Source: an uncultured Candidatus Berkelbacteria bacterium
GTDB lineage: Bacteria > Patescibacteriota > UBA1384 > XYA2-FULL-43-10 > CAINNR01
Assembly: GCA_903851235.1 (NCBI GenBank)
Contig: CAINNR010000015.1
Coordinates: 11,327-75,326 of the forward strand
DNA length: 64,000 nt
Direction: 5' to 3'
Shown one piece after another: positions 26,002 through 51,485 of this stretch. The translations under genes were made by a program, and so were the position numbers. Under the pieces are notes generated by a model, which saw only the letters and a program-made list of their open reading frames with translations, had not been told where the DNA came from and searched no databases. Each line of letters starts with the position of its first letter. Position 1 is the stretch's first letter.

Positions 26002-29000
26002 TTAGAATCCGATATGGGTATAATTTGTTGTTTGCGGATTGACCCAGAGTCCGGCGCGGGAGCCACTGCAACCGCCGACTTTGGAACAGATAACATCATC
26101 CACCTTATATTGCCAGTAATCAACATCCTCTTGGCGGCCGGTCATAATTTGCGACGGAATCGCCAAGGCGTCGCCGGTTCGTTCCGATAATGCCAACACA
26201 TCACCGGCCAAAGTTTTCGCCTTGTACTGGGCGGCGGTAATATAGCCGGACTTTTTCGCCGTCGGATCCAAGCCATTAAAGGTGCCGAGATTCCCGTTGT
26301 CGGAAACAGAAGGATCGGGTTTGGCATCAACCCCGGGATAGTAACCGTCGGCGGTACAGGTGACCTCGGTCTTGTAAACACCGAATAAATTCATTAGGAC
26401 AAAGATTGCGACCGAAATCGGATTAAAGCCGGTGATAAGCATTGAAACCAACATCGAACCGGTGCCGGGAACCAAGCCGACAGCGGTTTCAAATTGGCCG
26501 ATCTGTTTTGAGAAAACCAAATTGACGACGAAAGCGATGCCGGCGGATTCAACATTTGACAGGTTCCCCTTGGCGTCAGCTAATTGTTTATTTGCTGTCA
26601 CGAGGTTTTTCGCTTCTGCAGCGCCCCCGGTTGCAGCATCTGCGGCACCGGCTACAGCCATATTGGCACTGGAGATAGCGGCGTTGGCGGCAACAATTTC
26701 TCGGTAGGTCGTATAAATAGTGAATGCTGTGCCCGATGGCAGACCGAGCGCTTTATCGGCCCAACCGGTGATCTTGCTGATGCCCCAATCTTTGTAAATA
26801 TTTTCCAGGCTTTTTATCGGCGTGCCGACTCCCGGGATGGTGATATCGGCGGTGAAATTGCCGTTTTTCAAGCCGTAAGCCAGGGCGGTGAAAGTTCCCG
26901 GTTGGAGCTGAAACCCGAGTAAATTGCCGAGTTTGCCATCGATCCAACTGTCAAGATTCGCCATTTTGCCGTTTTTGACCATTGTATCGAGATCAAAACC
27001 CTTTGGATTCTGGAAAAATGATGTCAGTGAGTTATACAGATCAATTCCAAGATCAAGCTTATTGTAACTGACACCGTTAAACGATAGAGTGCCGAGAGCA
27101 TTTTTTGCGTAACTCATCAACATTGCTGTTCGCTGGACACCGTTGCCGGAGTACATGGTTTTAACGAAGCCGGCGGGGATATTTTGATCAACTTGGTAAA
27201 GTTTGGCATCAGCCATTCGCCAGAGCAGATTGTTTTTTGTTACAGTGTCGGCCTGTTTTCGAGCCGCTTCCTGTACGCTGTTTAAATCCTCAATTGATTG
27301 AGAATTTTTTTGTACCGCCGCCATCATCGCCACCGGATCAACCGTCGGATTCGCCGGATAGTCTTGGGCAAAGCCGGTGCTTGCAGCATCGTAGGCAGCA
27401 TAAGTCGAATAACTCGAAGCTGTTGGGTTGGTCGGGTCATAACAAGTATTCCCCATTGCCGTTGATCCGGGGGCGCACTGACTGGCATATAAGGTTGTCG
27501 CCGGTGAACCGGCCATCTCTGCCGTCTCGGTTACCGACGCGATCGGGTTCGCTTTGTTCAAATTTGTCAGATAGTTGTTGGTTGCGCTGTCAACGTAAGA
27601 TTTTTCTAACGTCGGGTTACCCATGATCGAATAATAGATATCTTCATATGTAATGCGAAAATATGCCGGTAGATTGGCGGTGGTTGAACCGTTGTAAATG
27701 TGCAGGGCTTCCGCCGATTTAACCGCAGCCGTGATCTCCAAAACTCGCAAATCGCCATGAACCAACATGTTGGTGCTTTGCAAAATCAAGTCCTGTGTTT
27801 TCGGCATACCGGCGTAATTTCCACTGCCCGGACTTGGGGTGGCGATGATACCGATTTTCGACAGGTAATCGCCGACCAATTGCTCGCCGATCTGTTGCCC
27901 ATAATACTCCCAGCGGTCGGCACTAGAGCTTATTGATATGGCACCAAAATGACCGGTGGTCGGTATTGAGTCACTAGCGCGAAAAGTTGTCAGGCCGGTT
28001 TTCCAACCGTCGGAATATGGAAGAGGCCCACCGAGGCCGATGTAGGCGGCGGTAAATGAGGCGCCGGCGGTTGGATCAAGACCGAGTGAATTATCGAGTT
28101 TCTCAATACCGGAGAGCAACAACGATGCGGCAGCTTGCTCCGGATTGGTAATAATTCGGCCGATTGTGCCGGCGGAAAGCCCGAGTTTGCTGTCAAGATC
28201 AATGCCAAAAACTTGGGAGAAGTTATTAAAGATTGCGCCGTAATCACATGAAGTGGCGGCCGAAGTCCCAATTATTGTCTTGCTGCCGCAGGCTTTGATT
28301 CGCTGGAAGGTGTTTGTAAAACCATCAATCTTGCCCAGCGTTGCGGAATCGATTCCCAGTAGTTTGCCCCACGTATCGATGCCTGTCGGTGTTAAGCCGA
28401 TCACGGTGTTGGCGACATCGTGGCGGTAGTCGTCGGGAGTTATTTTTGAAGTCAGAAGTTGCTGAGTCGTTCCGGCCGGAAGTCCGAGCTGGGAGTCGAT
28501 GCCACTGACCTGATTTAAAAAGTTGGTCGTTTGATAGAGAGTAATACTTTGTGTCGGGTTTGAGGTGGAAAATGCGTCGGCTGAACTACCGTTAAAAGCT
28601 AAATTTAGTGTTGAAGTGATATTTTTTTCAAGCGCCGGATTCGTCAGGGCGATCGGGGCGATATTAGCGGTGCTGGCGGGATAGTTAACGTGACTTTCGG
28701 CCAGTTGATATTGGCTGGCGATTGATTGCTCGGCGATTGAAGCGGCCAACGATAAATTTGTAATCGCATCCGGGGTCAGAATTTCCGACGGTGGCAATTG
28801 GAATGCCCGAGCGAAGGCCACCGGGCCAATATTATCCATCAACTCCTGCAAGGTTGAGCCGCGGAAGGAGTTTGACGGCAAGTTGAGAACCTTCTCGATT
28901 TTCGCCCCACCGATATTTTCATAAATGTTTCCTGAGAGAGAAACAGTGCCGAGACCGAGCATACCGCCGACAAAATTGGCACCCAAATTCGCCAGCGAAC

Positions 29001-32000
29001 AGTTACGAATAATTGACGACGTTGATTGAATTATATTAATAACCTGATTCGAGCCGACTCCAAGTTGACTCTCGAGATATTTTGAGCCGATTTTATCAAC
29101 CGCTAGGGTGCCGTTTCCGGAGAGCAGATCGAAAATATCGCTAGCATCAATTTTCATTCCGGCAACGGTGACACCCATGCCGGCGAAGACTGCAGTCGTA
29201 ATTCGGCTTTCAGCCGTTCGCTTGCCGATTGTCTCCAAATACGGATTGATCGGTTTCTGACTCAAATTGGCGAGTAGATCTTTGCGGTTGAAAAGGTTTT
29301 GCAGCGTAGTGACGGGGATGTTTAATTTGTTGCTGATATTTGCTAGTTCATCACTTGAAAACGCCGCCGCTTTTGATGGAGTGGAGAGAAAACTGTTCAA
29401 CTCGCTCTGATAAGTTGCGGCTGTTGCGGCATCAAAAGAGTTTGGAACGGCCGGGTTGGAAGCCAAACCCTGGGACAAGGCTTTGACAAAGTCGACTTGC
29501 GAGCTCGCGTTGCTTTCGGCGTAACTTCTGGCTTCATTGATGCTCGGAAATGCGTGAGTGCCACTGGCGTCGGCATAAACATAGGAGTTATCGACTATCT
29601 GACTGCTGACAGAGAAAGTAATACCGTTTTGTTTTGTATAACTGAAACCGACCGGGCAACTGCCGGTAGTCGTCGGGCTGGCGATCTGCGAAGTGAAGCC
29701 GTTATGGGCGTTATATGTTATCAGGTTAGCGTAATTTTGATTCAAGCCATTAGTCAAACTTTGAGCGCTGGTTTTGACCCGAGTGAAAGTGTCGATGACA
29801 TTTTGGGGTAAATTTAATCGTCCGGCGATCAGCTCGGCGTCGGAGCTGCCCAAAGTATCGGTTGAAACTGACTGTCCGGAGAGAAATTTCAAACTTGTTC
29901 CGGCCGGTAGTGCCAATGAAGTATCTAGATTGCCGGCGGCCAGCGCCACCTGCGAACCGCTAGCGAATGAGCTGGCACCGGTGATTGAAGAAATATCAGC
30001 CGGCAAATTAAGCGCTCTCATAACTTGGGCCCCGGCTTCGGCCGAGGAGATGCCCCAAACCTTGCTTACATGATCGCGAACGTCGGAAAGTGTTGCCAGT
30101 GTGCCCGGAGTGCCACCCTGAAAGAAGTTTGGCGGCAGATGTAAGGTTTCCTCCAGTTGGGCTTGACCGATAGATTGGAAGAAGGCGTCTTGCCCATCAA
30201 TATTTGACGAGTCGGTTTTATTTTTAATAAAAGTGGCGTAATAGTAAATTGAATTTTTCGGCAGGTCGAGTGAACTTTCAATTTTGTTGGCACCGATCGA
30301 AATTAGAAAATTCTCCGGTGTCATCTTGCCGGCCAGCATCAGAGCTAAAGAGGCGGCTGAGATCTGGGTGCCGGAGCTGGCCGAGGTTGAATCGTTGGTA
30401 TTTTGAACGCCGATGCTGCCGAGATCGGAGAGTTGGAGCGATGAAATAGAGGATTGCGGTTTACCGGTCAAAATTTCCTCGACTGCCTGGGCAATATCGG
30501 CAAAATCAAGCGCGGTGGTGTTGGCTTTATCTTTTAAACTTTGGTTGGCGGCGACAGAGTTTTTCAGAGCGCCTGAGGCCTGGTCGAAATTAACCGCCGA
30601 GTTTCTAGTGACACTAATTGCTTGAATCCCGGATGATAGGCCATTGGTGTCAGCTTTTTCCACCTCTGATTTGGCACTAGCGATGTTGGTTTTGAAAATC
30701 CCGATATTGGCATCGCTGCTGGTAACACCGGCCCAATCACTTTGAATTTTTGCTGTTTTTGTCTGAATCAACTGGATTCTGGTTTTGTAAAAATCGACAG
30801 TTTTCAGAGCTGAGGTAATCTCCGGGTGCTGGGCCAAATAAGAGGCTTCAGCTTGTTTTACCGCCGAAGAATTTGCGATTCCGTTGTAGAGCGCGGTCTG
30901 GCCAAGACTTTTCAGCACCGGTTGCGGATTGACATTCGAGCAGCCGAATAGGCGGAAAAAATCACCACGTGAAAGACCGTAAGTTGTCATGAATTGACTT
31001 TCCGGCAAAGTCACGACTTTCGTCGTTGTCGTTCCGGCGATGGTGATGGTTACTGTTGCCACTGATGGAACGGCGCAATCGCTACTGGTAAGTTTGTTAT
31101 TAAACCACTGTACTAATGCGGCCCGAACATCACTGTCGCCATTGAAAGCTTGGGCCAAGGTGTCGGCGCCGATCTGTTGAAAGTTCGATGCCAAGTTTGT
31201 GCCGGCCAAAATGTCGGTCATTCGGGCGTTGGCGCTGGCGGTGGTGATACTGTTTGATGTACTATCGACTGATAGTCTGGCGGCATTGGCGGCGGCGGTT
31301 GATGAGGCGAAAGAGTAAACACTATCAGCCAAAATCTTGTTGGCAACCAGCGTCGCATAGGCATCCGGTGGTAGAGCGCCGGATTTGTACTGAGCGGAGT
31401 AATTATTTAACCCCAGTCCAAGTTTTTCATCAACACTGGTCGGATTTTGATAAACCAAATCAATTTTTCGCTGACCGGCGACGGTTTCAAGTTTTTTAAA
31501 ATTAGTATCGGTGCCGAACGCTCCTGCCGGCAAAGCCAAATCATTTTCAATCGTTCGCCGTCCAATTACCAACCTCAAACTCGTCGGATCAGTGATTGAA
31601 GATGACAGCGTGTTGGTCGGCAGATTGAGCGCCGACTCGACATGGCGTTCGCCGGTATTAATCAAAATTTCATTCAAATTATTGCCCTGAATTGAGCCCC
31701 AAGGCAGATTTAACTTCTTCTCCAGTTGGGCTTCGCCGATTTTGGCTTCCAAGTCATTTACGTCGGCCAAATTGGCATTGATAAAAGCTTGCCGCGGTAA
31801 ATTCAAATCATCGGCCAGCGCCATGCCGCCGATTTTTTTGATTGTGTCGGCAAAGTCCGTGCCGGAAATCGCCATATTCGGAGAATTTAACATTTCGCCG
31901 ATCAGCGATTTTCCGATTAAACCGACGATGTCGGAGAAGCCGGCTTTCGATAAATCGGTCGTCGAATCAACGGATATTCCCAACTGATCGAGTAAATCGA

Positions 32001-33246
32001 TGTAATTTCCACTTGCCAGTTGTCGAAGATTGGCATTTAGGCTGGAATAGTCTGGTGGTGGCGAGGTATCATAGCCGGAGGAGGTTTGCCAGGCAAGACT
32101 TATTGGTGTCGCCGGTAATTTTGTTTTATCATCAGAGCCGATTCGTTTCTTCTTTATCAGTGTGCACTTAATATTGTCTACGGCGGAAATGTCAACCGCT
32201 TCACCCTTATAATGAGCGGAGAGATTACTGGCGGTTTCGGCGTCGGAGAAAACCAAATCGCCCTGACTGGCTCCGGCGGAATCGATAACCTCGGCTTGTC
32301 CGGTCGCTGAAGCGATTGTTGGATCGGCGCTGAGAGCATTCTTATCTGCGCTGGAGACATCGCTAACTGTGGTCAGCGAGGATTTACTTGAGCTGGTGTT
32401 CTGAGCGATCTGTTGATAAATTGCCGTTGATTCTCTTGAAGTTTGTTTGGCATCGCGGTTGTAACCGTTACGAATTCGCAAAACCTTGATCAATTCGTGA
32501 CCGGCGCCACCTTGATCCTTTGGTGTAACCAGATTAACCAAAAGTTCCAGAACACGGCGATCAATTACAACTTTATTTTGGGCGTTATCAATTATCGCAT
32601 TGACTGAAGTTTGGTCGTATTTCAGCATGTCGGCGGCTTGATTTTGATCGACACCGGCGATGCAGGCGAAATTCGGCAGATCATTTTTCAGATTCGAAAC
32701 GATGTTGGTTCGCGCAGTATTCTGGGCCGTGGTTATCAAATTTTGGTAGCCGGTCGGGTCGGCGGTTTTCATTGTTGCAATATCAGCAATCGTTTTACCG
32801 CTCGCCGCTGCCAGTGAATCATCATGATTGGCAAAGTCAGGAATAACATTTCCTAAACAGGATAATGTTCGAATATCCTGCAAATCCGAGGGGTTGAAAA
32901 CCAGTTTAGGTGAGGAGGAAATGTTTTCTGTCGCCCAGAGAAACCCACCGATGCCACCATTTTCGCCCTCCAGGTAGTTGTTGCTGGTAAATTGCATTAG
33001 TGACTTAACCGATGCTGGCAAATTATCATTGATCGTTGGTACATTTATTCCAACATCAATCCCACCAACTTGGTCACCTTCACTATCAATTGCTTCTATC
33101 GGGTTTTGGTCTTGATTATCATTGGACACGGCGGGAGAATCAACCGGATCGGCGTGAGCACTTTGAATATACACAATTAAATTCAGCGGCAAAATAATCG
33201 CCAAAATGTTGAAGATGACTAAACTTTTTTTCAGAAAAGGTTTCAT
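26002..33246 (-). CDS. giant (2414 aa) secreted, C-terminally membrane-anchored surface protein with degenerate xLxLP repeats
   Basis: Signal peptide MKPFLKKSLVIFNILAIILPLNLIVYIQSAHA; about 15 instances of (L/A)(N/G/A/H/D)LP(x)(N/G/S) repeats (DLNLPRQ, KLNLPWG, ALNLPTN, SLALPAG, RLNLPQN, VLNLPSN, LGLPAGT, ALGLPSG ...); hydrophobic segment near C-terminus; start overlaps the M23 gene stop by 1 nt. Confidence 0.7.
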   Translation of the reverse strand: MKPFLKKSLVIFNILAIILPLNLIVYIQSAHADPVDSPAVSNDNQDQNPIEAIDSEGDQVGGIDVGINVPTINDNLPASVKSLMQFTSNNYLEGENGGIGGFLWATENISSSPKLVFNPSDLQDIRTLSCLGNVIPDFANHDDSLAAASGKTIADIATMKTADPTGYQNLITTAQNTARTNIVSNLKNDLPNFACIAGVDQNQAADMLKYDQTSVNAIIDNAQNKVVIDRRVLELLVNLVTPKDQGGAGHELIKVLRIRNGYNRDAKQTSRESTAIYQQIAQNTSSSKSSLTTVSDVSSADKNALSADPTIASATGQAEVIDSAGASQGDLVFSDAETASNLSAHYKGEAVDISAVDNIKCTLIKKKRIGSDDKTKLPATPISLAWQTSSGYDTSPPPDYSSLNANLRQLASGNYIDLLDQLGISVDSTTDLSKAGFSDIVGLIGKSLIGEMLNSPNMAISGTDFADTIKKIGGMALADDLNLPRQAFINANLADVNDLEAKIGEAQLEKKLNLPWGSIQGNNLNEILINTGERHVESALNLPTNTLSSSITDPTSLRLVIGRRTIENDLALPAGAFGTDTNFKKLETVAGQRKIDLVYQNPTSVDEKLGLGLNNYSAQYKSGALPPDAYATLVANKILADSVYSFASSTAAANAARLSVDSTSNSITTASANARMTDILAGTNLASNFQQIGADTLAQAFNGDSDVRAALVQWFNNKLTSSDCAVPSVATVTITIAGTTTTKVVTLPESQFMTTYGLSRGDFFRLFGCSNVNPQPVLKSLGQTALYNGIANSSAVKQAEASYLAQHPEITSALKTVDFYKTRIQLIQTKTAKIQSDWAGVTSSDANIGIFKTNIASAKSEVEKADTNGLSSGIQAISVTRNSAVNFDQASGALKNSVAANQSLKDKANTTALDFADIAQAVEEILTGKPQSSISSLQLSDLGSIGVQNTNDSTSASSGTQISAASLALMLAGKMTPENFLISIGANKIESSLDLPKNSIYYYATFIKNKTDSSNIDGQDAFFQSIGQAQLEETLHLPPNFFQGGTPGTLATLSDVRDHVSKVWGISSAEAGAQVMRALNLPADISSITGASSFASGSQVALAAGNLDTSLALPAGTSLKFLSGQSVSTDTLGSSDAELIAGRLNLPQNVIDTFTRVKTSAQSLTNGLNQNYANLITYNAHNGFTSQIASPTTTGSCPVGFSYTKQNGITFSVSSQIVDNSYVYADASGTHAFPSINEARSYAESNASSQVDFVKALSQGLASNPAVPNSFDAATAATYQSELNSFLSTPSKAAAFSSDELANISNKLNIPVTTLQNLFNRKDLLANLSQKPINPYLETIGKRTAESRITTAVFAGMGVTVAGMKIDASDIFDLLSGNGTLAVDKIGSKYLESQLGVGSNQVINIIQSTSSIIRNCSLANLGANFVGGMLGLGTVSLSGNIYENIGGAKIEKVLNLPSNSFRGSTLQELMDNIGPVAFARAFQLPPSEILTPDAITNLSLAASIAEQSIASQYQLAESHVNYPASTANIAPIALTNPALEKNITSTLNLAFNGSSADAFSTSNPTQSITLYQTTNFLNQVSGIDSQLGLPAGTTQQLLTSKITPDDYRHDVANTVIGLTPTGIDTWGKLLGIDSATLGKIDGFTNTFQRIKACGSKTIIGTSAATSCDYGAIFNNFSQVFGIDLDSKLGLSAGTIGRIITNPEQAAASLLLSGIEKLDNSLGLDPTAGASFTAAYIGLGGPLPYSDGWKTGLTTFRASDSIPTTGHFGAISISSSADRWEYYGQQIGEQLVGDYLSKIGIIATPSPGSGNYAGMPKTQDLILQSTNMLVHGDLRVLEITAAVKSAEALHIYNGSTTANLPAYFRITYEDIYYSIMGNPTLEKSYVDSATNNYLTNLNKANPIASVTETAEMAGSPATTLYASQCAPGSTAMGNTCYDPTNPTASSYSTYAAYDAASTGFAQDYPANPTVDPVAMMAAVQKNSQSIEDLNSVQEAARKQADTVTKNNLLWRMADAKLYQVDQNIPAGFVKTMYSGNGVQRTAMLMSYAKNALGTLSFNGVSYNKLDLGIDLYNSLTSFFQNPKGFDLDTMVKNGKMANLDSWIDGKLGNLLGFQLQPGTFTALAYGLKNGNFTADITIPGVGTPIKSLENIYKDWGISKITGWADKALGLPSGTAFTIYTTYREIVAANAAISSANMAVAGAADAATGGAAEAKNLVTANKQLADAKGNLSNVESAGIAFVVNLVFSKQIGQFETAVGLVPGTGSMLVSMLITGFNPISVAIFVLMNLFGVYKTEVTCTADGYYPGVDAKPDPSVSDNGNLGTFNGLDPTAKKSGYITAAQYKAKTLAGDVLALSERTGDALAIPSQIMTGRQEDVDYWQYKVDDVICSKVGGCSGSRAGLWVNPQTTNYTHIGF

Positions 33247-33248
33247 AA

Positions 33249-34673
33249 TTACGGAGTTTTATTTAAAACGCTCAAATCACGGACGTATAAATACTCGCCG
33301 ATAACATTGTATTTTTTATTACTGCTGTGAAAATTGGCTACGTCTTCGGCGGTTGTGGTAACGGCGTGATTATCACAAAGAAGTTCGAAGTGAAGGTGAG
33401 GGTGATTCAGACCGGTCCAACTTGCGCCAATTTTTTGACCGACGGTTACATCGTCACTGCTGGTTACACTTTGCATATGGGCGTACACCGCTCTAAAGGT
33501 TTTACCGACGCTGTCTTTGCCTTCAATATATATGTAGTCGCCGGAGTGGTTCCCGCGCTTTGTAATATGACCGGAGAAGGCGGCGTAAACCGGTGTGCCA
33601 CCCGAATCGCCAATATCAGTGGCGTCATTGGTGCATTTGTTATTGTTGATGAATGTGCCATGTCCGGGAACCGATTCGCATCTCATAAACGATCCACCAT
33701 GCAATGTGCTGTTAAATCCCTTTACATCTTTTGGACTGATTGGATAGGCGGTTTCTCCGCTGAAGTGAAAAGGAACCGTGGCGAAGATATCCAAAAGTTG
33801 CCCGACGGCGGTGACGATTTTCAGGCCGGCGGCATTTTCTTTCGCATCGCCTTGCGGCAGCGTTTGAAAAGCTTTGACTAGTCCGACAATTTCATCAATC
33901 TTTGCTGAAATTTTTGCTTTGGTTGTAGAGTCATAGTTGCTTAGAGGCGGCGAATTCAGATCATTTTTCATTGCCGCCAAGTCACCTTGCAATCCGGAGA
34001 GGACATCGGCTGTTAATGACTTGGTGACATCGCTGTTTCCGCTCAATGCCAAAATTTTGGAAATCCATGGGCGATCATGCAAGATATCGGTGGCTTCTAC
34101 TGGGCTTGAACCGTTGACGTTCGGTGTTTGGAGGGCGCGAATAAGGAAAACCAGTGCGACGACAATGATAACTATTCCGACGATGGCGAGCAAAATCGGT
34201 AACCAATATCCGGCCGTTGTGGCGGCGATTTTAGTTCCGATTTGAGCCGCCCATTTTGTTGCTGATCCAACGGCTTTTTTCACCGCATCGCCAGCGACAT
34301 CGGCTAGCGGTTTTGCGGCGCGTTTAGTCGCTGTTTTTTTCTCATCTTCGGCTTGTTCTTTGGCTTTTTCTTGCGCCGTTTCGCGCGGCTGTACCGCCGG
34401 ACCACCGGGTTGAGCCTCCTTGACCGCTGCTGGCGTAAAAACATCATCCGATTTAAATTCCGGCACCTCGGCTTGCTGAATTTGCTCCTCAGGCGTGCCC
34501 GATTTTACCTTTGCTGTTTCATTTGCATTATCATCGGTTTTCGGTTGATGAGCATCTTCGATTTCTTCTTCATCAATATCAAAATCGGCCGAAGTTTCCG
34601 TCGGAACATTAATTTGAGCCCGTTTAATATCGTCGGCGACCCTCCGTTTGTACTGATCTGGCGACTCAGCCAC
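33249..34673 (-). CDS. membrane-anchored M23 (LytM-type) metallopeptidase
   Basis: Acidic disordered cytoplasmic N-terminus, one TM, C-terminal HxxxD (HGGSFMRCESVPGHGTFINNNKCTND), DIGDSGGTPVYAAFSG and HLHFEL motifs. Confidence 0.7.
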   Translation of the reverse strand: MAESPDQYKRRVADDIKRAQINVPTETSADFDIDEEEIEDAHQPKTDDNANETAKVKSGTPEEQIQQAEVPEFKSDDVFTPAAVKEAQPGGPAVQPRETAQEKAKEQAEDEKKTATKRAAKPLADVAGDAVKKAVGSATKWAAQIGTKIAATTAGYWLPILLAIVGIVIIVVALVFLIRALQTPNVNGSSPVEATDILHDRPWISKILALSGNSDVTKSLTADVLSGLQGDLAAMKNDLNSPPLSNYDSTTKAKISAKIDEIVGLVKAFQTLPQGDAKENAAGLKIVTAVGQLLDIFATVPFHFSGETAYPISPKDVKGFNSTLHGGSFMRCESVPGHGTFINNNKCTNDATDIGDSGGTPVYAAFSGHITKRGNHSGDYIYIEGKDSVGKTFRAVYAHMQSVTSSDDVTVGQKIGASWTGLNHPHLHFELLCDNHAVTTTAEDVANFHSSNKKYNVIGEYLYVRDLSVLNKTP

Positions 34674-42969: not shown

Positions 42970-42980
42970 TTCAAGTTGAT

Positions 42981-43932: not shown

Positions 43933-44349
43933 CTAATTTGGACTAGTCCGTCCGCGTTTATCTATTACACTTGCCAGCTTTTCAATATCGGCACGCGAAT
44001 ATCGTTTGTTGGCGTACGGATCGGCAACTCTCTCAACTTTCGGCTGATAAATCTCAACCCGGACATTATTTTCGCTTTTATGCCAAAGTCTGGTTTTCGG
44101 GTTGGCGGCATAGGCCATGGCGTTTTTCAGAAACTGACCAAAGGAGCGACCATTGACTTTAACGAAACAGATGCAAAATGTCAGGATAAAAATCGGCAAA
44201 GCCAGAACCCAGTTGATCGGGGATGGAAGTGAACTAATGGCGATATAACCGGCGCCGCCACCGAGAACGGCATAGACAAACTGGACCATCGAAAGTGGTC
44301 CCAAAATTTTATCCTCGATATCGATTTTTTGTGGCACTTTGAACTGCAT
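43933..44349 (-). CDS. PrgI/VirB3-like small two-TM T4SS protein
   Basis: 138 aa, conserved MQFKVPQKIDIEDKILGPLSMVQFVYAVLGG start and two adjacent TM helices as in the PrgI family; position upstream of VirB4. Confidence 0.4.
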   Translation of the reverse strand: MQFKVPQKIDIEDKILGPLSMVQFVYAVLGGGAGYIAISSLPSPINWVLALPIFILTFCICFVKVNGRSFGQFLKNAMAYAANPKTRLWHKSENNVRVEIYQPKVERVADPYANKRYSRADIEKLASVIDKRGRTSPN

Positions 44350-44370
44350 TGTTTTACGGTTCCTTGCTAA

Positions 44371-44400
44371 ATGATCTTTCGGAGTCTACCGAAGGTGACC
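44371..44400 (-). repeat. 30-nt conserved upstream motif (copy 2)
   Basis: Reverse complement ggtcaccttcggtagactccgaaagatcat; 27/30 identical to 3383..3412; 22 nt upstream of the PrgI-like start. Confidence 0.5.
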
Positions 44401-44601
44401 CCACAGGCGAATAATTTCCCGAAATTACGAATAAAATTCAATTGAGACACAAGAAACAAGATACAAACAAATCCCAAATTATTAAATCCAATATCCAAAC
44501 GGTTTAATATCTTGAAAATTGGAATTTGAATATTGTTTGGTTATTGCCGCTTGTAACTTGTATCTTCAACTATTGTATCAAATTTTTCCGCAATAGATAA
44601 A

Positions 44602-45831
44602 TTAGGCGGCTTTATTAATTGCTTCAACCGGTGAAACAGCGGCGATCTCCGGATCCGCAGCTTTATAAATATCAACTATACTATTCAGAATGCCCCACAA
44701 ACTTTCACCATTTCCATCGGTAGATTTTGAATTATCCGGCATCGCCGGTTCACCAATACCGTCTTGGAGGAGGGAATCCCAATTGTTTTCATCATCGGAA
44801 TCCCTCGCGCTCAAATTGGTGGTTGCGGTGGCTGTCGATATCAAAACCCTTTCTTTTAGCGCTGTTTTGTTCGCCATTTGGCTCTTAATTTGATCAAAAA
44901 AGAAATGACTTTCTTCAATCCAAGCGTTCAGAGCCGATTTATTCTTCATCAGATTTCGCTGATTTTCCGCTGGCATTACCCGCCAAATTGAATTTAAAAA
45001 ACCATTAAATTCACCGCCGGATTGCAGATAAGCGGCGATTTTCTCGGCCAAAATTTCCTCCGAAAGCCAGACCATTTTTTCCGCCTTATCTTCATCGGTT
45101 GCTTCCGGACGACTTATTGCCGCTGAATATTGATTGAGGGCGTTAACCGATCGATATGATTCTCTCAGACTGAGATCTCCGCCGTCAGTCACTAAGCCGC
45201 CGATTTTTGCTCGCATTTCACCGCTCTGACCGACTCCGTTGCGCGAAAGCCCGTGGGCGATTTCGTGCTTTAAAATGTGGACGATATTTTGTGGCACGCC
45301 ATCAACCTTTTGAAACAATTCATCATAAATTATAATCACCGGATAGTTTTTATCATACTCGCAAACCTTATCCACTCCGCCGCCGGATTCGCGGCGAACA
45401 ATGCGAAATGCCAGCGCCTGCAAAGTTTCGGCGTCCAAAGTTCCGTTGGCGACCAATTCAGCCAAAGCACAGGTGACCTCGACTTTCTCCTCGGGCGAAA
45501 AATTTCCGTAAAGTATTGGCTCCACCATCTCAAAATATTTTAACGTCTCAGATAAATTTTTCTCACTCAGATCGACGCCCTCGGCCCAACCTTTCGTACA
45601 ATTAACAATTTCCTCATCACTTAAGACTCCGGTTTGTTTTATTCGCAAAAAAGACTCGATTCCGGATCGTTGTTCAAGTCGTCGATTTTCTTTGTCGATA
45701 AGTGTTTTAATTTGAGCTTCCTTTTGCGGGTCCGGTTTGGCTTCGGGCTTGGCCTCGTCAGTCTTCGGCAACTCAACCGGAGTGGGAGTTTCGGCGCTAG
45801 AATCAATTAAATCCGATGGTAATTTGGGCAT
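44602..45831 (-). CDS. cytoplasmic HExxH zinc-metallopeptidase-like protein (candidate T4SS-associated effector/processing enzyme)
   Basis: NIVHILKHEIAHGL contains an HEIAH motif; no signal peptide or TM; Pro/Glu-rich N-terminus. Confidence 0.4.
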   Translation of the reverse strand: MPKLPSDLIDSSAETPTPVELPKTDEAKPEAKPDPQKEAQIKTLIDKENRRLEQRSGIESFLRIKQTGVLSDEEIVNCTKGWAEGVDLSEKNLSETLKYFEMVEPILYGNFSPEEKVEVTCALAELVANGTLDAETLQALAFRIVRRESGGGVDKVCEYDKNYPVIIIYDELFQKVDGVPQNIVHILKHEIAHGLSRNGVGQSGEMRAKIGGLVTDGGDLSLRESYRSVNALNQYSAAISRPEATDEDKAEKMVWLSEEILAEKIAAYLQSGGEFNGFLNSIWRVMPAENQRNLMKNKSALNAWIEESHFFFDQIKSQMANKTALKERVLISTATATTNLSARDSDDENNWDSLLQDGIGEPAMPDNSKSTDGNGESLWGILNSIVDIYKAADPEIAAVSPVEAINKAA

Positions 45832-45885
45832 AATTTCAATCTTTCTATTGACAAATTATAGGCGTTTGCTAAAATATAGTTAACG

Positions 45886-45948
45886 ATCGGGTGGGTCGCC
45901 GACCTGCAAGACTGTAAATTGCACTTAAGCGATCATTAAACACCCGAT
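45886..45948. ncRNA. candidate structured cis-element, copy A (43-nt conserved core in a variable closing stem)
   Basis: atcgggtg | tgggtcgccgacctgcaagactgtaaattgcacttaagcgatc | attaaa cacccgat; core 41/43 identical to copy B; outer stem differs from B by a compensatory G:C to C:G change; 55 nt upstream of the 409-aa gene start. Confidence 0.45.
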
Positions 45949-46196: not shown

Positions 46197-46211
46197 ATTT
46201 CCGCATAATTA

Positions 46212-46655
46212 TTAAAATTGATTTAATATGCTGGCGATTTTCTTTGTCACATTTATAGTTAACTCTTCGGTGATGGTACTTTGGTCAAGCTTTTTGCCCT
46301 TTAAATTTTCAAAATAGGAAACCAAATCGGCCAAAATAAGGTTATAAATTTTCTCGGCTGTCGCCGTCTTGTCGGCAACTGACAATCCAACAAACGCTGT
46401 CTCGATTCGCGGATCGGAAAGTACAATTCGCTTGGCGGCGGCATCAGCCAAAGTTTTTAAATCGCCTTTTTGGTGCAAAACGTTATATACAAAAAGCCCG
46501 ACGTGATTTCCCGCCACAACATGAGCAGTGATATTTAAATTAACGGTCTTTTTTATCTGCTCAAAACTTTGACCGGGATGATTTCTGATAATCGTCACCG
46601 CCTTTTCAGCGTCGTCAAAGATTTTTTTTAATTTGTTTTTCAGTTCGTCAGCCAT
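46212..46655 (-). CDS. hypothetical cytoplasmic protein (147 aa)
   Basis: Acidic, predicted helical; directly downstream of the VirB6-like gene. Confidence 0.35.
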   Translation of the reverse strand: MADELKNKLKKIFDDAEKAVTIIRNHPGQSFEQIKKTVNLNITAHVVAGNHVGLFVYNVLHQKGDLKTLADAAAKRIVLSDPRIETAFVGLSVADKTATAEKIYNLILADLVSYFENLKGKKLDQSTITEELTINVTKKIASILNQF

Positions 46656-48947
46656 TTATTTTTCCTCCGTTTCAAATTTAGCAGATGGGTCAATTTTCAA
46701 AGCAATCTCTCTGGCAGTGAGTAAATCGTCACGAGCAACACTTTCTTGACCGGCTTTGGCTAATCGCTCAAGTTCATTTGGGTCGCCGCCGTTTTTTAGC
46801 TCCTGAGCGACGAATTGAAGTGTGGCTTCCTGTCTTTCAGCCATCCTGATTGCTTGCACACCGGTAGATCTTGCAACACGAGTCTGGAGGATTTTGAGTT
46901 GTTCAGCAGCTGCTGGAGTAATTCCTTTTATTTGAACATCGAGTTCTGGAACATGCCCTATTCCAAAGCCAACACTGGTTGGCTTAAACATGTCGGCCAT
47001 GGTTTTTGCACTATCGATACCTCCCTCACCTTTGTTTTTCAATGTTTCATTGATATCATCCAGGCGACTTTCAATCCCGGCCATATCTACTGGGACTGCG
47101 GAAGATGCCCGGCTTTCCTCCTCTTCCTCCTCGGCGTCATAATCATCACCCGCACCAGCGGGTTGTCGTTCTGCTCGTTGTCGAGCCCTTTGTGCTGCTT
47201 GACGTTCTGCATTAGATTGAGGAACTCTTGCGCCTCTATCAACACTTACGTCACGATGGTCTGTCACCATATAGCCACCTTCGCCCGGTTTGCGAAAAAA
47301 TTCCTCAATTGTTTTAACTTCACCTTCCGGCATACTTCCGTCTTCCAGTTCTGCCAATCGTTTGTTATTTACTCTTCTTCTGGCTTCCTGAGTTGATGCA
47401 ATGTAGGCGGCAATTTCGTCTCCTCTTTTTTCTGGATCATTTAGGTTGACGCCCTTGCCACCCTGATCCTTTGATTTCATTAAATTTACCTTGAAATAAT
47501 CCTCAATACCTTTTCTATATTCAGGTTCGGTTGAAACTCTATAAACATCTGCCCGTTCTCTGGTTCCATCGGCGTTCCTGTGATACAACTGTCTTTCGGC
47601 AAGATCTTTAAGTTTAAACTGGTCTTTGTAATTTGGACCGGATTCTTCTGCGCCAAGATCGCCAAACACAGCTTTTAGCCGTCCCTTGGTGACTGGGTCT
47701 TTAGCCCGGACATCTTCCAACCACTTTGGCCCTTTGTCTTCCAAGAAGTTCATGATATTAATTTTTTTCCTGATTTCTTCTTGTTTTTTTATCTTTCTAG
47801 CGTACAGATCTCTTGTGACCGTGCCCTTACCAATTGCCCGGTCTATTGATCGCACGACAGGCAATTTTCTCGCGCCTTCTCTTGCCCAGTTTTTTCCAAC
47901 GCCGTATTGAAAACTGACATAATCTTTTGCGGCTTTAACTCCGACTCCTCCAGTTGCGTTCCAAGCTGCTCCGCCGGTTTTGGACCAGGCTTTTTTGCCG
48001 AAGTTTGCCCAAGCGCCGACGGCGGCACCACCGGCTTTAAACGGCGAAGTGATCGCCATATACAAGCAAAGACCGGCAAAACCCATTTGCAAAACCCATG
48101 ATCCATCAGGTCCGATAGTATTTAGAAACTCGCCTGCCAGCCAGAGCCAGAAAACGGAAATTACCGGCATAAAAACCCATTTTAAGAATTGACTCCACCA
48201 CTGTTGAAAGTATTTTTTGGTAATCGGCAAAATCATTGCCATAAAAGCCGCCGGAGAAATGCAAATTAGAAAATACAGGAAATAATTTCGGATTAAAAAG
48301 ATGAAGGCCAAAATTGCGACTAAAACGGCGCCGACTGCGACGAAAATTTGTTTTAGAATGTAGACGAGAATGTATCCTGGGTAATTGCCGGTAAAACCGG
48401 CCGGACCTGTTGGCGATTGTTTTATCAAACCATTAAATGCTCCGGTGACATTGCCGGCGTTGTCACCGGTTAAGAAGGCGGAGATTGCTACATTGCCAAT
48501 ATCCAACAACATTCTAGCGATTAAGAAGCTGAAATTTGCCAGAATTATAGCGATAATAAATGTTGGTAGGAATTTTTTGACCGCGTACGAATCCAGCTGA
48601 ATTCGCAAGATATTCATAAAGGCGACCCAAATCAGAACGGCAAGAACCAAGGAATCCACAACTTTCATGATTGTGTACCAAATTGTGACCGTGGTCGCGC
48701 CCATGCCGGTAAAGCACAACGAAGCGTCTTTGACAGTGCCGGTTGCGGCTTTGACAGTCGAATCGCAACCATCTTTTGGCATCATAACTTGATAAATCGG
48801 TTCGACCGTTGGCAATGCGGCTTGAGCTTTGAGCGGAGAAAAGAAAACAAAAAAGCTGAATAGAAAAATCGTTACTGAAAAAATTAGCGTTTTGTGAAGA
48901 AAAATTAGGTTTTTGATTTTTTTATTCATATTTGCAACCGATTTCAT
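46656..48947 (-). CDS. VirB6/TrbL-like polytopic membrane protein with extended hydrophilic C-terminal domain
   Basis: N-terminal signal/TM, at least 7 TM helices in the first 330 aa, then about 400-aa charged C-terminal region (extended VirB6 type); position in the T4SS cluster. Confidence 0.55.
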   Translation of the reverse strand: MKSVANMNKKIKNLIFLHKTLIFSVTIFLFSFFVFFSPLKAQAALPTVEPIYQVMMPKDGCDSTVKAATGTVKDASLCFTGMGATTVTIWYTIMKVVDSLVLAVLIWVAFMNILRIQLDSYAVKKFLPTFIIAIILANFSFLIARMLLDIGNVAISAFLTGDNAGNVTGAFNGLIKQSPTGPAGFTGNYPGYILVYILKQIFVAVGAVLVAILAFIFLIRNYFLYFLICISPAAFMAMILPITKKYFQQWWSQFLKWVFMPVISVFWLWLAGEFLNTIGPDGSWVLQMGFAGLCLYMAITSPFKAGGAAVGAWANFGKKAWSKTGGAAWNATGGVGVKAAKDYVSFQYGVGKNWAREGARKLPVVRSIDRAIGKGTVTRDLYARKIKKQEEIRKKINIMNFLEDKGPKWLEDVRAKDPVTKGRLKAVFGDLGAEESGPNYKDQFKLKDLAERQLYHRNADGTRERADVYRVSTEPEYRKGIEDYFKVNLMKSKDQGGKGVNLNDPEKRGDEIAAYIASTQEARRRVNNKRLAELEDGSMPEGEVKTIEEFFRKPGEGGYMVTDHRDVSVDRGARVPQSNAERQAAQRARQRAERQPAGAGDDYDAEEEEEESRASSAVPVDMAGIESRLDDINETLKNKGEGGIDSAKTMADMFKPTSVGFGIGHVPELDVQIKGITPAAAEQLKILQTRVARSTGVQAIRMAERQEATLQFVAQELKNGGDPNELERLAKAGQESVARDDLLTAREIALKIDPSAKFETEEK

Positions 48948-50797
48948 AATATTTTCTTGACAGAAAAATTAGGCGGACTGCCGGTGGCACTCCATTTGGC
49001 TGTTAGGTTTGCCTTTGTAACTACAATTGTAATTACTGTTTCATTGTCAAAAACTTCAATTTCCGGAGAGCTATTTTTACTGATTTTAGCGAGGTAAGCG
49101 CTGTCTGAACAAGTGACTTTCACTTTGATTTTTTTATTGGTTGAGTCCGGTTCGTAGAACACTATTTTTTCTGGATAACTTTGCTGATTTCCACTTCCGC
49201 CGTTTGTTGTTGAGTCCCAGACAAAAATGTTGCCATCCAATGGTTTGTTAACCAGTGAGTTTGCCTTACTGAAGTCACTGGCAGAAAGTGTCAGAACGCC
49301 GCGAAATTCACTTGGCGAATTGCTGGTTGCCGATGCGACAGCTGTGGAAGTGTCTGTGCCACCTGCTGGCGTTGTTGCCGCTGGCGTTGTTGCCGGTGCC
49401 GTTCCGGTGTTGGCTGGACTGACAGTTGTTGTATCAACGTTGGCAAAGTTGATTTTCAACCCGATAAAACTTGTTAGCAAAAGCCGAGCTTCGGTCATGC
49501 CCCAAGCCGCCGCGTCGTGAATTAGTTGTGCCAACCCACAACCCATGCTGTTCATAATACCAACGATGTTTGTACCGGCGCTACCCAAACCGCCACAGGA
49601 GCTTTCCTTGTCCGGTCCGACAACCGTTGGGGTTTCAATAATTCCTTTGATTTTCTCAAAATTTTTGACGGTTTCATTTACAGCACTAGAAAAAGCATCG
49701 AGTGACAGGTAAACTTCAGCATCAGGTTTATCTTCAAGCGCTTTATCGTATTTAAAAATTTTCATTTTATCTGTGCAAGGCCATTTGCCACCATTGGTTC
49801 CATCGTTGAGTTGAGCGATATCTTTTTGTAATTGTTGGGCGTCGGAATACAAAGTGCCCATTACTTGGTTTCCAGCATCATTTAGGACCCATTTGACGCT
49901 AGAGGTTGTATCACCACCCCATTTTGTCTCAAAAGCGGTCAATGATGCTCCGGCTATGAGACCGATGCCGGCTCCAACTAAACCGCCGACTTTTGCGCCG
50001 GCAGTTCCACCGAGTGCTAAATTCAGGGCTGCTAAATTAACGACTCCTGTGAGTGCTGAAGTTCCATTATCTTTCCAGTATGTCCCTGATTGTGGTGCAA
50101 TAGTTAGCAATGTTCGAACATCACCTTTCAGTGATTCCCATTTAGTTGACATATCAGTACAAACCGCAGTTTTATCGCTAGTATTTAGGGTATAAAAAAC
50201 TTTTGTTCCATTCCAAGTGCCGGAGCTTATGGCTTTGACCATAGTTGCCAAATCAGGATTTGATGTGTTTAATCCGGCACATAGACTATTGTCTGCTGCA
50301 GTAAAATCTCCAGGGGTAATCTTTCTGTAAGAATTTGAATTGTTCAGGTCTGTAGTATATGCGTTACCCACAACCCAGAGTCCGGTTCCTGCCGGATTCC
50401 AAACTATCAGATAAATTGGAGAAGACCAACTGGAGATTAGTGATGTTTTAGCGCTGCAAACCGCGCTGCTCGGATTTACCAATTTCTGGAGATAAATTTG
50501 ATCGAATGAAGTAGCTTTTGTACCGTCTGATGTGGTAGGGATATCATCTGCATTTATTTGATCTGGAGTTATAGGGCCCACATCATCGAAAAGGTATTGA
50601 ACGGACGTGTCTCCTTGCTTCATTGTTACACTTGTTTCTGTGATGTCACTGCTGGTGAATTGAAACGAAAGTGATACCGAACCGGGCGCTGGTGGGCTGA
50701 CTGCCCTGGCTTTTTGGACAACAAAAATCTGGCCGAACGAATTAAAAACAATTCCGGCGATTATGACTGCGACCAAGAAGATCTTCGTCAGCCGCAC
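48944..50797 (-). CDS. secreted Ser/Thr-rich surface protein (617 aa)
   Basis: Signal peptide MRLTKIFLVAVIIAGIVFNSFGQIFVVQKARA; Thr/Ala/Pro-rich linker ATTPAATTPAGGTDTSTAVA; stop overlaps the VirB6-like start by 4 nt. Confidence 0.45.
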   Translation of the reverse strand: MRLTKIFLVAVIIAGIVFNSFGQIFVVQKARAVSPPAPGSVSLSFQFTSSDITETSVTMKQGDTSVQYLFDDVGPITPDQINADDIPTTSDGTKATSFDQIYLQKLVNPSSAVCSAKTSLISSWSSPIYLIVWNPAGTGLWVVGNAYTTDLNNSNSYRKITPGDFTAADNSLCAGLNTSNPDLATMVKAISSGTWNGTKVFYTLNTSDKTAVCTDMSTKWESLKGDVRTLLTIAPQSGTYWKDNGTSALTGVVNLAALNLALGGTAGAKVGGLVGAGIGLIAGASLTAFETKWGGDTTSSVKWVLNDAGNQVMGTLYSDAQQLQKDIAQLNDGTNGGKWPCTDKMKIFKYDKALEDKPDAEVYLSLDAFSSAVNETVKNFEKIKGIIETPTVVGPDKESSCGGLGSAGTNIVGIMNSMGCGLAQLIHDAAAWGMTEARLLLTSFIGLKINFANVDTTTVSPANTGTAPATTPAATTPAGGTDTSTAVASATSNSPSEFRGVLTLSASDFSKANSLVNKPLDGNIFVWDSTTNGGSGNQQSYPEKIVFYEPDSTNKKIKVKVTCSDSAYLAKISKNSSPEIEVFDNETVITIVVTKANLTAKWSATGSPPNFSVKKIL

Positions 50798-50813
50798 TGT
50801 GACCCTCCTAAGG

Positions 50814-51485
50814 TTATTTCGATATCCTATTAAGATTATCTAACAATTTCTGCCAATAATCAACTTTTTCTTTATCGCCAATTAATTTTTCGATCGAAAT
50901 TGAGTCCTCGATCGCCGTTTTATTTATTGGATCAACGGTATAGGCTTTGGCGAAAGCGTCGGCTGCTTTCTGCCGGAAGCCTGGTTTTAATTCACTAAAC
51001 ACCTGGTCGTTGTCGGCCAATTTTGCGTTTGCCAATCCGAGAAAAACCCAGCTTTGATAATCCCCTGGACCATTGTTGGCACAAAATTCGAGGTTGACGA
51101 CGGCGACATCCGACATACTGTTTTCAATTAGATTTTTATCAAAGTCCAGATCACAAATTTTGGAATCGGCACGATCAATGATCTTAAGTAAATCATTATT
51201 TTTCTCGTCAAGCAAAAAACTTCGCAGCACCAAAATGTTCGCCGCTGAATCACGGGTGGTTTTTTCCAGATTTTTTGCATCGGTATTTTGTGGCTCAAGT
51301 GTTTGGGCTTTTTGAAATTTTACCAATGCCAGAGTGTAATTTCGCTCGGCAAGTAAATTTTTACCATCGGAGAGATTTTTTTTGTAGACATAATTTCGCC
51401 AGGGAATGGCGAGAGCAAAAAATAGGATCAGCCCGATGATAATCCAAAATACAGTTTTTAGGTTTTTGTTTTCAGTAACTTTCAT
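50814..51485 (-). CDS. membrane-anchored hypothetical protein (possible TPR-like helical repeats)
   Basis: Start placed at MKVTENKNLKTVFWIIIGLILFFALAI (TM anchor); helical C-terminal region; the longer upstream extension would overlap element B. Confidence 0.4.
   Translation of the reverse strand: MKVTENKNLKTVFWIIIGLILFFALAIPWRNYVYKKNLSDGKNLLAERNYTLALVKFQKAQTLEPQNTDAKNLEKTTRDSAANILVLRSFLLDEKNNDLLKIIDRADSKICDLDFDKNLIENSMSDVAVVNLEFCANNGPGDYQSWVFLGLANAKLADNDQVFSELKPGFRQKAADAFAKAYTVDPINKTAIEDSISIEKLIGDKEKVDYWQKLLDNLNRISK

Follow-up and report, generated by a model that had tools for sequence, protein, structure and literature searches.

A probable Patescibacteria-type type IV secretion locus beside the replication origin of a Berkelbacteria-lineage bacterium

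A 64-kb window of contig CAINNR010000015.1 (the whole stretch analyzed here, 64,000 nucleotides, whose numbering is used throughout) carries about 25 kb of genes read from one strand, several of which resemble parts of a conjugation apparatus, and this cluster lies beside the genes of the replication origin. The question raised by this locus is whether such an apparatus belongs to a conjugative element or to the resident chromosome. We conclude that the region is very probably a type IV secretion system (T4SS) locus of the Patescibacteria type, which is proximal to the origin, vertically inherited and derived from the monoderm mating-pair-formation machinery of the FATA class (MPF-FATA), with neither a relaxase nor a coupling protein nearby. 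The initial annotation had proposed a chromosomal, non-conjugative T4SS of the Gram-positive type; this proposal is supported by the housekeeping flanks, the recurring gene order, the lack of flanking direct repeats and the ordinary GC content, and it is correct, though such a system was published earlier (McLean 2020; Wang 2023; Quinonero-Coronel 2025). Assignment of the organism to a Berkelbacteria-lineage bacterium within the Candidate Phyla Radiation (CPR) is well supported; the closest VirB4 relatives, among the best 80 of more than 562, are labelled Candidatus Berkelbacteria and are at most 87% identical.

Fifteen consecutive open reading frames (ORFs) occupy the minus strand between 26002 and 51554, separated by intergenic distances of −55 to +252 nt. 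From the first gene onward they encode proteins of 246, 617, 763, 147, 86, 409, 138, 262, 715, 500, 597, 472, 441, 474 and 2414 amino acids (aa), so that the order, sizes and single strand given initially were all borne out; those lacking a common name are called g246, g617 and so on below. The Pfam scans covered every ORF of the window with 120 aa or more, and hydrophobic or transmembrane (TM) segments were called by Kyte–Doolittle hydrophobicity. The related loci used for comparison are the best 80 of more than 562 VirB4 relatives in a collection of species-representative genomes; these 80 are all metagenome-assembled genomes of CPR/Patescibacteria. The T4SS core consists of the following genes.

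46656–48947, minus strand: VirB6/TrbL-like polytopic protein, 763 aa, with about six hydrophobic segments in residues 21–275
43933–44349, minus strand: PrgI/VirB3-like membrane protein, 138 aa (Pfam PrgI, E = 3.8e-10)
42981–43769, minus strand: VirB4 N-terminal domain as a protein of its own (TrsD-like), 262 aa
40822–42969, minus strand: VirB4 ATPase, 715 aa (Pfam P-loop_TraG, E = 7e-32; AAA_10)

The T4SS core recognized initially thus stands, for PrgI and VirB4 by their profile scores, for VirB6 through members of its family and for the VirB4 N-domain through a fused relative. The VirB4 ATPase scored 356 bits (E = 4e-106) against NCBIfam conju_CD1110, a family of VirB4-like conjugal transfer ATPases with a curated cut-off of 325, and its nucleotide-binding motifs are intact (Walker A, AKSGSGKS; Walker B, LMIIDE). 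Its N-terminus contains a low-complexity stretch of approximately 130 aa. The protein is 53–87% identical to VirB4 of the best 80 CPR loci (of more than 562 relatives) and at most 38.6% identical to any plasmid VirB4 in 72,556 plasmid records. As a proxy for membership in the Patescibacteria VirB4 clade, these CPR identities stand against 38.6% for the best of 3801 plasmid records. PrgI reached 40.6 bits against a Pfam cut-off of 27, and prgI is located directly upstream of the VirB4 genes in 67–69 of the 80 related loci. The 262-aa protein aligns to residues 46–205 of a single 892-aa VirB4 in the related locus L057 (42% identity, E = 2e-40), while the 715-aa protein aligns to residues 300–878 of the same protein. 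It also matches positions 143–241 of NCBIfam VirB4_plasma, the VirB4 model of the Mycoplasma integrative conjugative element (ICE), with E = 2.5e-6, and its gene was detected by tblastn in 77 of the 80 loci. The N-domain and the ATPase form one ORF of 870–910 aa in L057, L063, L067, L069, L077 and L079 (about 9.1–11.9 kb in each). The two parts are fused in some relatives and encoded by two genes in the window and most others, which indicates that the split arose or was reversed within the clade. The VirB6-like protein carries a long charged C-terminal extension. Six of its 21 aligned positional homologues match Pfam TrbL/VirB6 (best E = 8.6e-8) and two others match TrbL_3 or TrbL_4, whereas a profile of this family gave coiled-coil noise only against PDB sequences. 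The gene was found by tblastn in 28 of the 80 loci, a figure limited by locus length.

The surroundings of the cluster bear on whether it is a resident of the chromosome. The following flanking genes are of use here.

20480–21865: dnaA, within a range of 1.5–5.5 kb from the cluster end together with dnaN and recF
22308–23414: dnaN
23507–24550: recF
53004–53942: XerC/D-type recombinase, the sole recombinase in the Pfam scans

One flank consists of a 247-aa ORF, a DciA-like gene, recF, dnaN and dnaA, with yidC further out. The other comprises uppP (BacA), a PAP2 phosphatase, the XerC/D-type tyrosine recombinase, a Mur ligase, FemAB, TsaD and LeuRS; the recombinase and the uppP/PAP2 genes had been placed upstream of the cluster initially, and the Pfam scans confirmed them. 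Location between dnaA-dnaN-recF and uppP-PAP2-xerC/D-mur indicates that the cluster is part of the core chromosome at the replication origin. In tblastn searches of the 80 related loci, recF or dnaN was detected downstream in 11–14 and uppP or xer upstream in 4–11. The same flanking neighbors thus accompany the cluster in many distinct genomes whose proteins are 25–87% identical, which argues for vertical descent. The GC content of the cluster (0.455) is close to that of the window (0.437), and no direct repeats bracketing the cluster were found. As had been stated initially, the window lacks a coupling ATPase and a relaxase; the Pfam scans of its ORFs of at least 120 aa revealed neither a VirD4/TraG-type coupling protein (T4CP) nor a relaxase. 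A relaxase and VirD4 just outside the window, together with att repeats, had been named as the signs of a mobile element. An overlapping sister contig, which extends 5.6 kb past the left end of the window, contains no T4CP and no relaxase, and no direct repeats were found to flank the cluster.

Two observations were made on the origin side. A 30-nt palindromic sequence with the DnaA-box-like TGTGGATAA occurs in two copies, one inside dnaA (20784–20813) and one in the dnaA-dnaN spacer (22083–22112), which is consistent with oriC being located there. The 247-aa ORF (25234–25977, minus strand) lies between the giant gene at the cluster end and DciA/recF, the same position as SEML1_0004 of Southlakia epibionticum (S. 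epibionticum) ML1; it has no family match and no homologue in the fetched loci, and a plus-strand ORF overlaps it, so that its coding strand is uncertain.

A VirB4/VirB6/PrgI region with an array of secreted small proteins was described for Saccharibacteria and other CPR bacteria by McLean et al. (2020). Wang et al. (2023; PMC10633639) showed by transposon sequencing (Tn-seq) that the T4SS cluster of S. epibionticum, most of whose genes scored as essential, is required for epibiotic growth, a requirement known for this species only. This system resembles Gram-positive conjugative systems, its pilins are essential, and it has no recognizable coupling or relaxase proteins. Its order is dnaA, dnaN, recF, SEML1_0004, 0005 (PEGA), 0006 (two lysozymes plus a cysteine peptidase), 0007 (1113 aa, with a DD-peptidase), 0008 (VirB4), 0009, 0010 (PrgI), 0011 (VirB6-like), 0012 (NTF2-like), 0013 (VirB6-like), the pilins 0014–0019 and Hsp20; the PEGA protein SEML1_0005 and SEML1_0004 were essential (ES) at the later time points. 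Compared through the published tables, the window is collinear with SEML1_0004–0019. Both loci lie beside dnaA-dnaN-recF and present, on the minus strand, a VirB6-like gene, PrgI, the VirB4 N-domain, VirB4, hydrolases and a PEGA protein, for which g441 is the positional counterpart of SEML1_0005. Both also have a VirB2-like pilin array, no relaxase or T4CP nearby, and Hsp20 beside the pilin genes (seen for our organism on the overlapping contig L082).

The differences are as follows. The pilin array of the window is 22 kb off across oriC instead of adjacent. The window has a single VirB6-like gene where S. epibionticum has two, and an NTF2/VirB8-like gene was not recognized in it. The hydrolases are M15_4, a divergent M23 and a Cys-rich module in the window versus lysozyme/glucosaminidase/cysteine peptidase and DD-peptidase in S. 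epibionticum. Furthermore, PEGA is fused to a β-propeller in the window, which also has a lineage-specific HExxH protein. The window cluster ends with a 2414-aa protein, as against a length of 1113 aa for SEML1_0007.

Quinonero-Coronel et al. (2025; PMC12102498) examined 3035 genomes and obtained a monophyletic Patescibacteria VirB4 clade nested in MPF-FATA, with TrsD-like, PrgI, VirB6 and VirB2 components near virB4 and the cluster near dnaA. They found relaxases in 103 of the 3035 Patescibacteria genomes and detected no PrgB-type adhesins. The window agrees with the MPF-FATA systems (pCF10 Prg, pGO1 Trs, C. difficile CTn CD1110 and Mycoplasma ICE Mbov_0395/0397) in passing the CD1110 cut-off, and in the PrgI family, the TrsD-like N-domain protein, Mbov_0395-type pilins and a large hydrolase after virB4; its VirB4 is also strongly similar to that of the Mycoplasma ICE. 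Unlike them, it has no relaxase, T4CP or oriT nearby and no PrgB-type adhesin, and it is chromosomal and vertically inherited.

The best plasmid match of VirB4 (38.6% over 570 aa) was found in Pontibacillus sp. ALD_SL1 (NZ_CP062975.1, 351–361 kb), on a non-mobilizable replicon of 898 kb. The gene order there matches that of the window: two pilin-like genes, a VirB6-like protein of 779 aa, a 116-aa protein, a VirB4N-like protein of 274 aa, VirB4 and an M23 metalloendopeptidase of 1050 aa. The 779-aa protein weakly matches the VirB6-like protein of the window (E = 3e-5), and the 274-aa protein preceding VirB4 is 29% identical to the 262-aa protein. The annotation shows neither a relaxase nor a T4CP over 12 kb, and flagellar genes adjoin the cluster. 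Pontibacillus differs in being a member of Bacillota, in that its cluster is uncharacterized, so that it gives no guide to function, and has a single large hydrolase, and in lacking homologues of the giant protein, g441 and g409. Its cluster is a putative Bacillota counterpart of the CPR-type minimal T4SS and the closest system outside CPR.

The likeness to Tn916 drawn initially proved not to be the closest one. The orf17-orf14 block of Tn916/ICEBs1 (MPF-FA) shares the monoderm logic of a small VirB3-like protein, VirB4 and then a wall hydrolase. However, VirB6 in the window lies upstream of PrgI and not between VirB4 and the hydrolase, the hydrolase types differ, and there is neither Orf21/Orf20 (T4CP/relaxase) nor an element-type Int/Xis. 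The TcpE and TcpF profiles also failed, since PrgI gave E = 0.0089 against TcpE (16.9 bits, cut-off 29.9) and VirB4 gave E = 0.0028 against ATPase_TcpF (15.6 bits, cut-off 1100). The CD1110/pCF10/Mycoplasma-ICE systems of MPF-FATA are closer.

Downstream of virB4, the cluster continues with proteins associated with the cell wall and ends with the giant gene.

39313–40815, minus strand: g500, envelope protein anchored at its N-terminus, with a putative prealbumin-like domain (TM residues 16–34)
37481–39274, minus strand: g597, N-terminally anchored envelope protein (TM residues 6–24)
35995–37413, minus strand: g472, anchored peptidoglycan peptidase composed of a Cys-rich module and a C-terminal M15_4 (LAS-type) domain
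34724–36049, minus strand: g441, anchored PEGA plus TolB-like β-propeller protein, non-enzymatic (PEGA, E = 6.8e-4; PD40, E = 1.2e-6)
33249–34673, minus strand: g474, bitopic protein whose N-terminal 160 aa are cytoplasmic and whose divergent M23 domain is extracellular (Peptidase_M23, E = 2e-13)
26002–33246, minus strand: giant protein of 2414 aa at the cluster end, with an N-terminal signal or anchor

All five proteins preceding the giant one are N-terminally membrane-anchored. They had been described initially as five wall-remodelling enzymes; a significant catalytic domain is present in two of them (g472, M15_4; g474, M23), g441 is no enzyme, and g500 and g597 gave sub-threshold matches only. 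The M15_4 match of g472 is above the cut-off (E = 1.1e-15) and includes the motifs SPHGFGTAID (SxHxxGxAxD) and DTMH (DxxH). In g474, a TM segment at residues 160–178 precedes the M23 domain at about residues 350–440; its subfamily has replaced the first His of HxxxD (by N, A, C, G or S; N in g474) and kept HxH (HLH). Like the LytM factors of EnvC/NlpD type, g474 may thus regulate or activate without being an active endopeptidase itself. The β-propeller of g441 also matched NCBIfam propeller_TolB (E = 1.1e-6), and g441 was detected by tblastn downstream of virB4 in 44 of the 80 related loci. CarboxypepD_reg matches of g500 (E = 1.4e-5) and g597 (E = 8e-5) are below the cut-off. The C-terminal Cys-rich module of g500 (approximately 135 aa) is 39% identical to residues 153–267 of g472 (E = 2e-22), and this module gave no PDB sequence match and no Pfam match above the cut-off. 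An RlpA-like DPBB fold read by eye for the module was discarded, as g472 gave E = 0.11 against DPBB_1 (13.2 bits, cut-off 28.8) and g500 gave none. For g597 there was no PDB match and no homologue in the 80 loci; a YkuD-like motif, HFSSGATHGCIGI, likewise read by eye, was not confirmed by the PDB comparison and was dropped.

When 107 ORFs just downstream of the relatives' virB4 were scanned with Pfam, the domains found were M23 (19), Peptidase_C39_2 (14), Amidase_3 (7), CHAP (7), NlpC/P60 (7), SLT (6), Glucosaminidase (6), Amidase_2 (5) and M15_4 (4). Such recurrent yet variable hydrolase domains indicate that the battery is clade-wide and that its domains are exchanged freely. The hydrolases and the giant protein had been offered initially as novel accessory components. 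This does not hold for the hydrolases, because downstream peptidase/lysozyme genes are essential in S. epibionticum; only the giant family looks under-described.

The giant protein has a conserved N-domain (about aa 220–560) with invariant GGAGH, SRES and SAHxxGxAxD, followed by at least 12 helical repeats ending in L-x-L-P, which agrees with the xLxLP repeats noticed initially. Its C-terminus consists of one or more TM segments (about aa 2225–2290) and a conserved Cys-rich tail of approximately 125 aa. No Pfam or NCBIfam match was obtained for the whole protein, for four pieces of 600–700 aa, or for the two conserved domains (E up to 10), and phmmer with the N-domain found nothing among PDB sequences. 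A possible LAS/M15-type metallopeptidase reading of the N-domain has in its favor the invariant SAHxxGxAxD and the invariant GGAGH upstream of it. However, the segment was modeled by AlphaFold2 (AF2) with a confidence below 50 and is without a Pfam or PDB match, and hhalign of this segment against the M15_4 family of g472 aligned a 20-residue motif alone, at 2% probability. AF2 models of the giant protein reached pLDDT values of 72 and 74 and are mostly helical.

A search of 5.8 billion proteins gave 43 close homologues, of which none has a Pfam domain and those named are hypothetical proteins. Phmmer with the N-domain against 1.84 billion cluster representatives gave 203 clusters at 50% identity, nearly all of 1400–3280 aa and with the N-domain always near the N-terminus; eight sampled members had no Pfam match. 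In the related loci, tblastn detected the giant protein in 44 of 80, and hidden Markov models of the N- and C-domains located the family on the same strand downstream of virB4 in 38 of the 49 loci whose sequence continues there for 9 kb or more. Sixteen stop-to-stop frames of 1164–2026 codons carry both domains, and in loci that reach recF the giant-family genes sit between the hydrolases and recF. We tentatively suggest, as an idea that is more likely wrong than right, that the family could be an unrecognized structural part at the core of the T4SS in Berkelbacteria and allied CPR lineages, namely an extracellular conduit or adhesin bridging epibiont to host, which would replace the PrgB-type adhesin and VirB8-10-type scaffold absent from these systems.

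The pilin genes are located apart from the cluster, and two repeated non-coding elements are found in and around it.

762–1241, 1251–3335 and 3516–3860, plus strand: three VirB2-like T4SS pilin genes, beyond oriC and 22 kb away from the cluster
44370–44398, minus strand, 21 nt upstream of prgI, and 3385–3413, plus strand, upstream of the third pilin gene: 29-nt motif TCACCTTCGGTAGACTCCGRAAGATSATT
45871–45934, minus strand, upstream of g409, and 51506–51569, minus strand, upstream of g246: 64-nt hairpin element

The pilin genes matched Pfam T4SS_pilin (E = 1e-5 and 9.7e-16) and the NCBIfam Mbov_0395 pilin-like family (E = 5.5e-10 and 5.2e-5), and the precomputed PF18895 annotation on identical contigs covers the second and third. 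The product of the second gene (1251–3335) has 694 aa, with a large N-terminal extracellular region and two tandem T4SS_pilin domains, which is far above the normal size of a VirB2 pilin; it may be a pilus-tip protein or an adhesin–pilin fusion. On L082, an overlapping contig from another sample, a large serine recombinase of 602 aa (Resolvase plus Recombinase, 779–2587) lies approximately 3 kb upstream of the pilin array and is followed by Hsp20.

A separate location of the pilin genes and an upstream motif in common with the cluster had both been pointed out initially, and both were found again, the latter as the 29-nt motif upstream of the third pilin gene and prgI. Its degenerate pattern has two exact matches in the window against 0.00 expected; it shows no significant RNA fold and is absent from the 80 related loci. 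It is a candidate for a common regulator-binding site linking the pilin and prgI loci. The copies of the 64-nt element are 88% identical over 64 nt and 94% over 49 nt, and both fold as the same three-tier hairpin (z = −2.2 and −2.4), whose outer stem is formed by different sequences in the two copies (AUCGGGUG/CACCCGAU versus AUCGGC/GCCGAU). No copy exists in the 80 related loci, and neither element has an Rfam match. The 64-nt element may be a terminator/promoter or operator module that divides the cluster into sub-operons.

These components suggest the following working of the machine. By homology, the split VirB4, the PrgI/VirB3-like protein and the VirB6/TrbL-like protein would form a cytoplasmic-membrane translocon, which would energize the assembly of the VirB2-like pilins; these, though encoded 22 kb away, are perhaps co-regulated with the cluster through the 29-nt motif. 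The anchored wall proteins, whose domains were described above (the M15_4 peptidase, the divergent M23 protein, the PEGA/β-propeller protein and the two proteins with the Cys-rich module), would open and scaffold a passage through the peptidoglycan of the cell itself or of its host. The giant protein, anchored at both ends, would be a lineage-conserved structural or adhesive part on the outside. Because there is no relaxase or T4CP and cultivated relatives live as epibionts, the machine would serve contact-dependent exchange with a host cell, by effector export or macromolecule uptake, and not the transfer of a plasmid or ICE.

Whether such a machine exports at all can be questioned. It might instead take up DNA or other macromolecules, as ComB of H. 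pylori or the archaeal Ced system does, feeding a cell that makes no nucleotides of its own and secreting nothing. This is a serious alternative, although we regard it as unlikely. Import needs neither a relaxase nor a T4CP, CPR bacteria are without nucleotide synthesis, and the T4SS is put forward as a possible route of import in a PNAS perspective. VirB4 gave weak matches to the Ced DNA-import ATPases CedB (E = 2.7e-13) and CedD (E = 7.8e-7), but it matched conjugative VirB4 families far more strongly, components specific to ComB or Ced were not found, and the sequence does not reveal in which direction transport would run.

It can also be asked where the machine ends. The T4SS might be the virB6-prgI-virB4 core only, with the wall proteins and the giant protein being general factors of envelope growth or division that happen to adjoin it near the origin. 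M23, M15 and TolB-like proteins are common as housekeeping wall factors, the giant protein is dissimilar to any known T4SS component and missing from 11 of the 49 informative loci, and the hairpin elements suggest separate transcription units. However, same-strand hydrolase genes follow virB4 in almost every related locus despite changing domain types, and g441 and the giant protein stay in place where the outer flanks change. In S. epibionticum, the genes at corresponding positions are annotated as part of the T4SS and are essential like the T4SS genes. A large hydrolase likewise follows virB4 immediately in monoderm conjugative T4SSs and in the Pontibacillus cluster. So narrow a system is improbable.

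That the cluster is the transfer module of an ordinary or decaying ICE, with its relaxase, coupling protein and att sites a little beyond the window, is very improbable and was rejected. In its favor, VirB4 exceeds the threshold of a family that takes its name from ICE conjugation ATPases of Clostridioides, there is a tyrosine recombinase 1.5 kb upstream of the cluster, the serine recombinase of the overlapping contig lies close to the pilin genes, and approximately 13 kb of the source contig extend beyond the inspected sequence. However, the housekeeping neighbors on both sides are repeated across many genomes, the tyrosine recombinase is of the XerC/D type and itself syntenic in relatives, no flanking direct repeats were found, the GC content is not deviant, and no relaxase or T4CP was found in the 64 kb. 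Relaxases are moreover rare in Patescibacteria, as reported in PMC12102498.

Several points nevertheless weigh against the Patescibacteria-type T4SS as we describe it. The term non-conjugative holds for the 64-kb window alone, and a T4CP or relaxase could sit elsewhere in the genome; T4CP homologues were in fact reported in most Patescibacteria genomes, far from virB4 (PMC12102498). The VirB6-like protein of the window itself has no direct Pfam match, and a VirB8-like (NTF2) component was not identified in the window. Two hairpin copies and gaps of 163–252 nt around prgI suggest several transcription units, at odds with a single long operon. Among the wall proteins, g500 and g597 have no significant catalytic domain, and the catalytic status of g474 is uncertain since it is without one canonical zinc ligand. 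The AF2 models of the giant protein gave no specific fold match, and its role is deduced from its kept position and topology. Finally, we infer the function of the machine as a whole from its genes alone.

The remaining genes of the cluster lie upstream of, or between, those of the core.

50814–51485 (ORF to 51554), minus strand: g246, single-pass membrane protein with a TPR-like C-terminal part, the first gene
48944–50797, minus strand: g617, exported or anchored S/T-rich protein of 617 aa (21% S+T), lineage-specific
46212–46655, minus strand: g147, small soluble protein of 147 aa without a TM segment
45936–46196, minus strand: g86, doubtful ORF of 86 aa (GC 0.33)
44602–45831, minus strand: g409, cytoplasmic HExxH protein of 409 aa (HEIAH at residue 189), lineage-specific

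The hydrophobic segment of g246 spans residues 32–56, and its TPR_CcmH_CycH match (E = 5e-4) is below the cut-off. Its start is probably the ATG at 51485, because the 64-nt repeat overlaps the upstream part of the ORF. Homologues of 219–241 aa adjoin uppP in 8–11 related loci. An N-terminal hydrophobic segment (residues 9–27) was found in g617, which has no Pfam or NCBIfam match and homologues in the closest 4–7 related loci only. The small protein g147 has no family match and is kept at the same position in 5–8 close loci, while g86 has no homologue in any of the 80. For g409 there was no TM segment and no PDB sequence match; the search of 5.8 billion proteins gave 15 homologues, of which those with a source name are hypothetical proteins of Berkelbacteria or Patescibacteria and none has a relevant Pfam domain on record. 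When the upstream ORFs of the relatives were clustered, the same core emerged, and g409 was placed between virB6 and prgI in 14 related loci, the other small proteins being lineage-specific.

Two further stretches of the window were noted for their low GC content. The first (12000–18000, GC 0.37) lies beside a tRNA-Ser (16682–16772, minus strand), contains internal repeats of 48–54 nt, and encodes an AbiEii toxin, its putative partner, and proteins of the MerR/HTH and HATPase_c kinds. This stretch may be an integrated island near oriC. The second (3966–5990, GC 0.35) is a cassette between the pilin array and a pilB-like T2SSE ATPase gene (5994–7646) and encodes an AAA_14/DUF4143 ATPase and a small putative nucleotidyltransferase ORF (read by eye). 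The repeats at 5178–5239 and 5995–6056 show that a 62-nt copy (87%) of the pilB 3′ end is duplicated beyond the cassette, and this duplication across it suggests an insertion event.

Before that of Patescibacteria, no T4SS had been shown to be essential to the cell that carries it, and the window offers a well-resolved example from the Berkelbacteria lineage, which leaves the current picture of the Patescibacteria T4SS unchanged. The comparison separates its constant parts, namely VirB6, PrgI, the split VirB4, the PEGA protein and the position at oriC, from the hydrolase domains, which are freely swapped. The giant family is the less-described part of the locus and a candidate to supply the extracellular part still missing from the machine, which makes it a target for cryo-electron tomography, interaction modeling or genetics in cultivable relatives.

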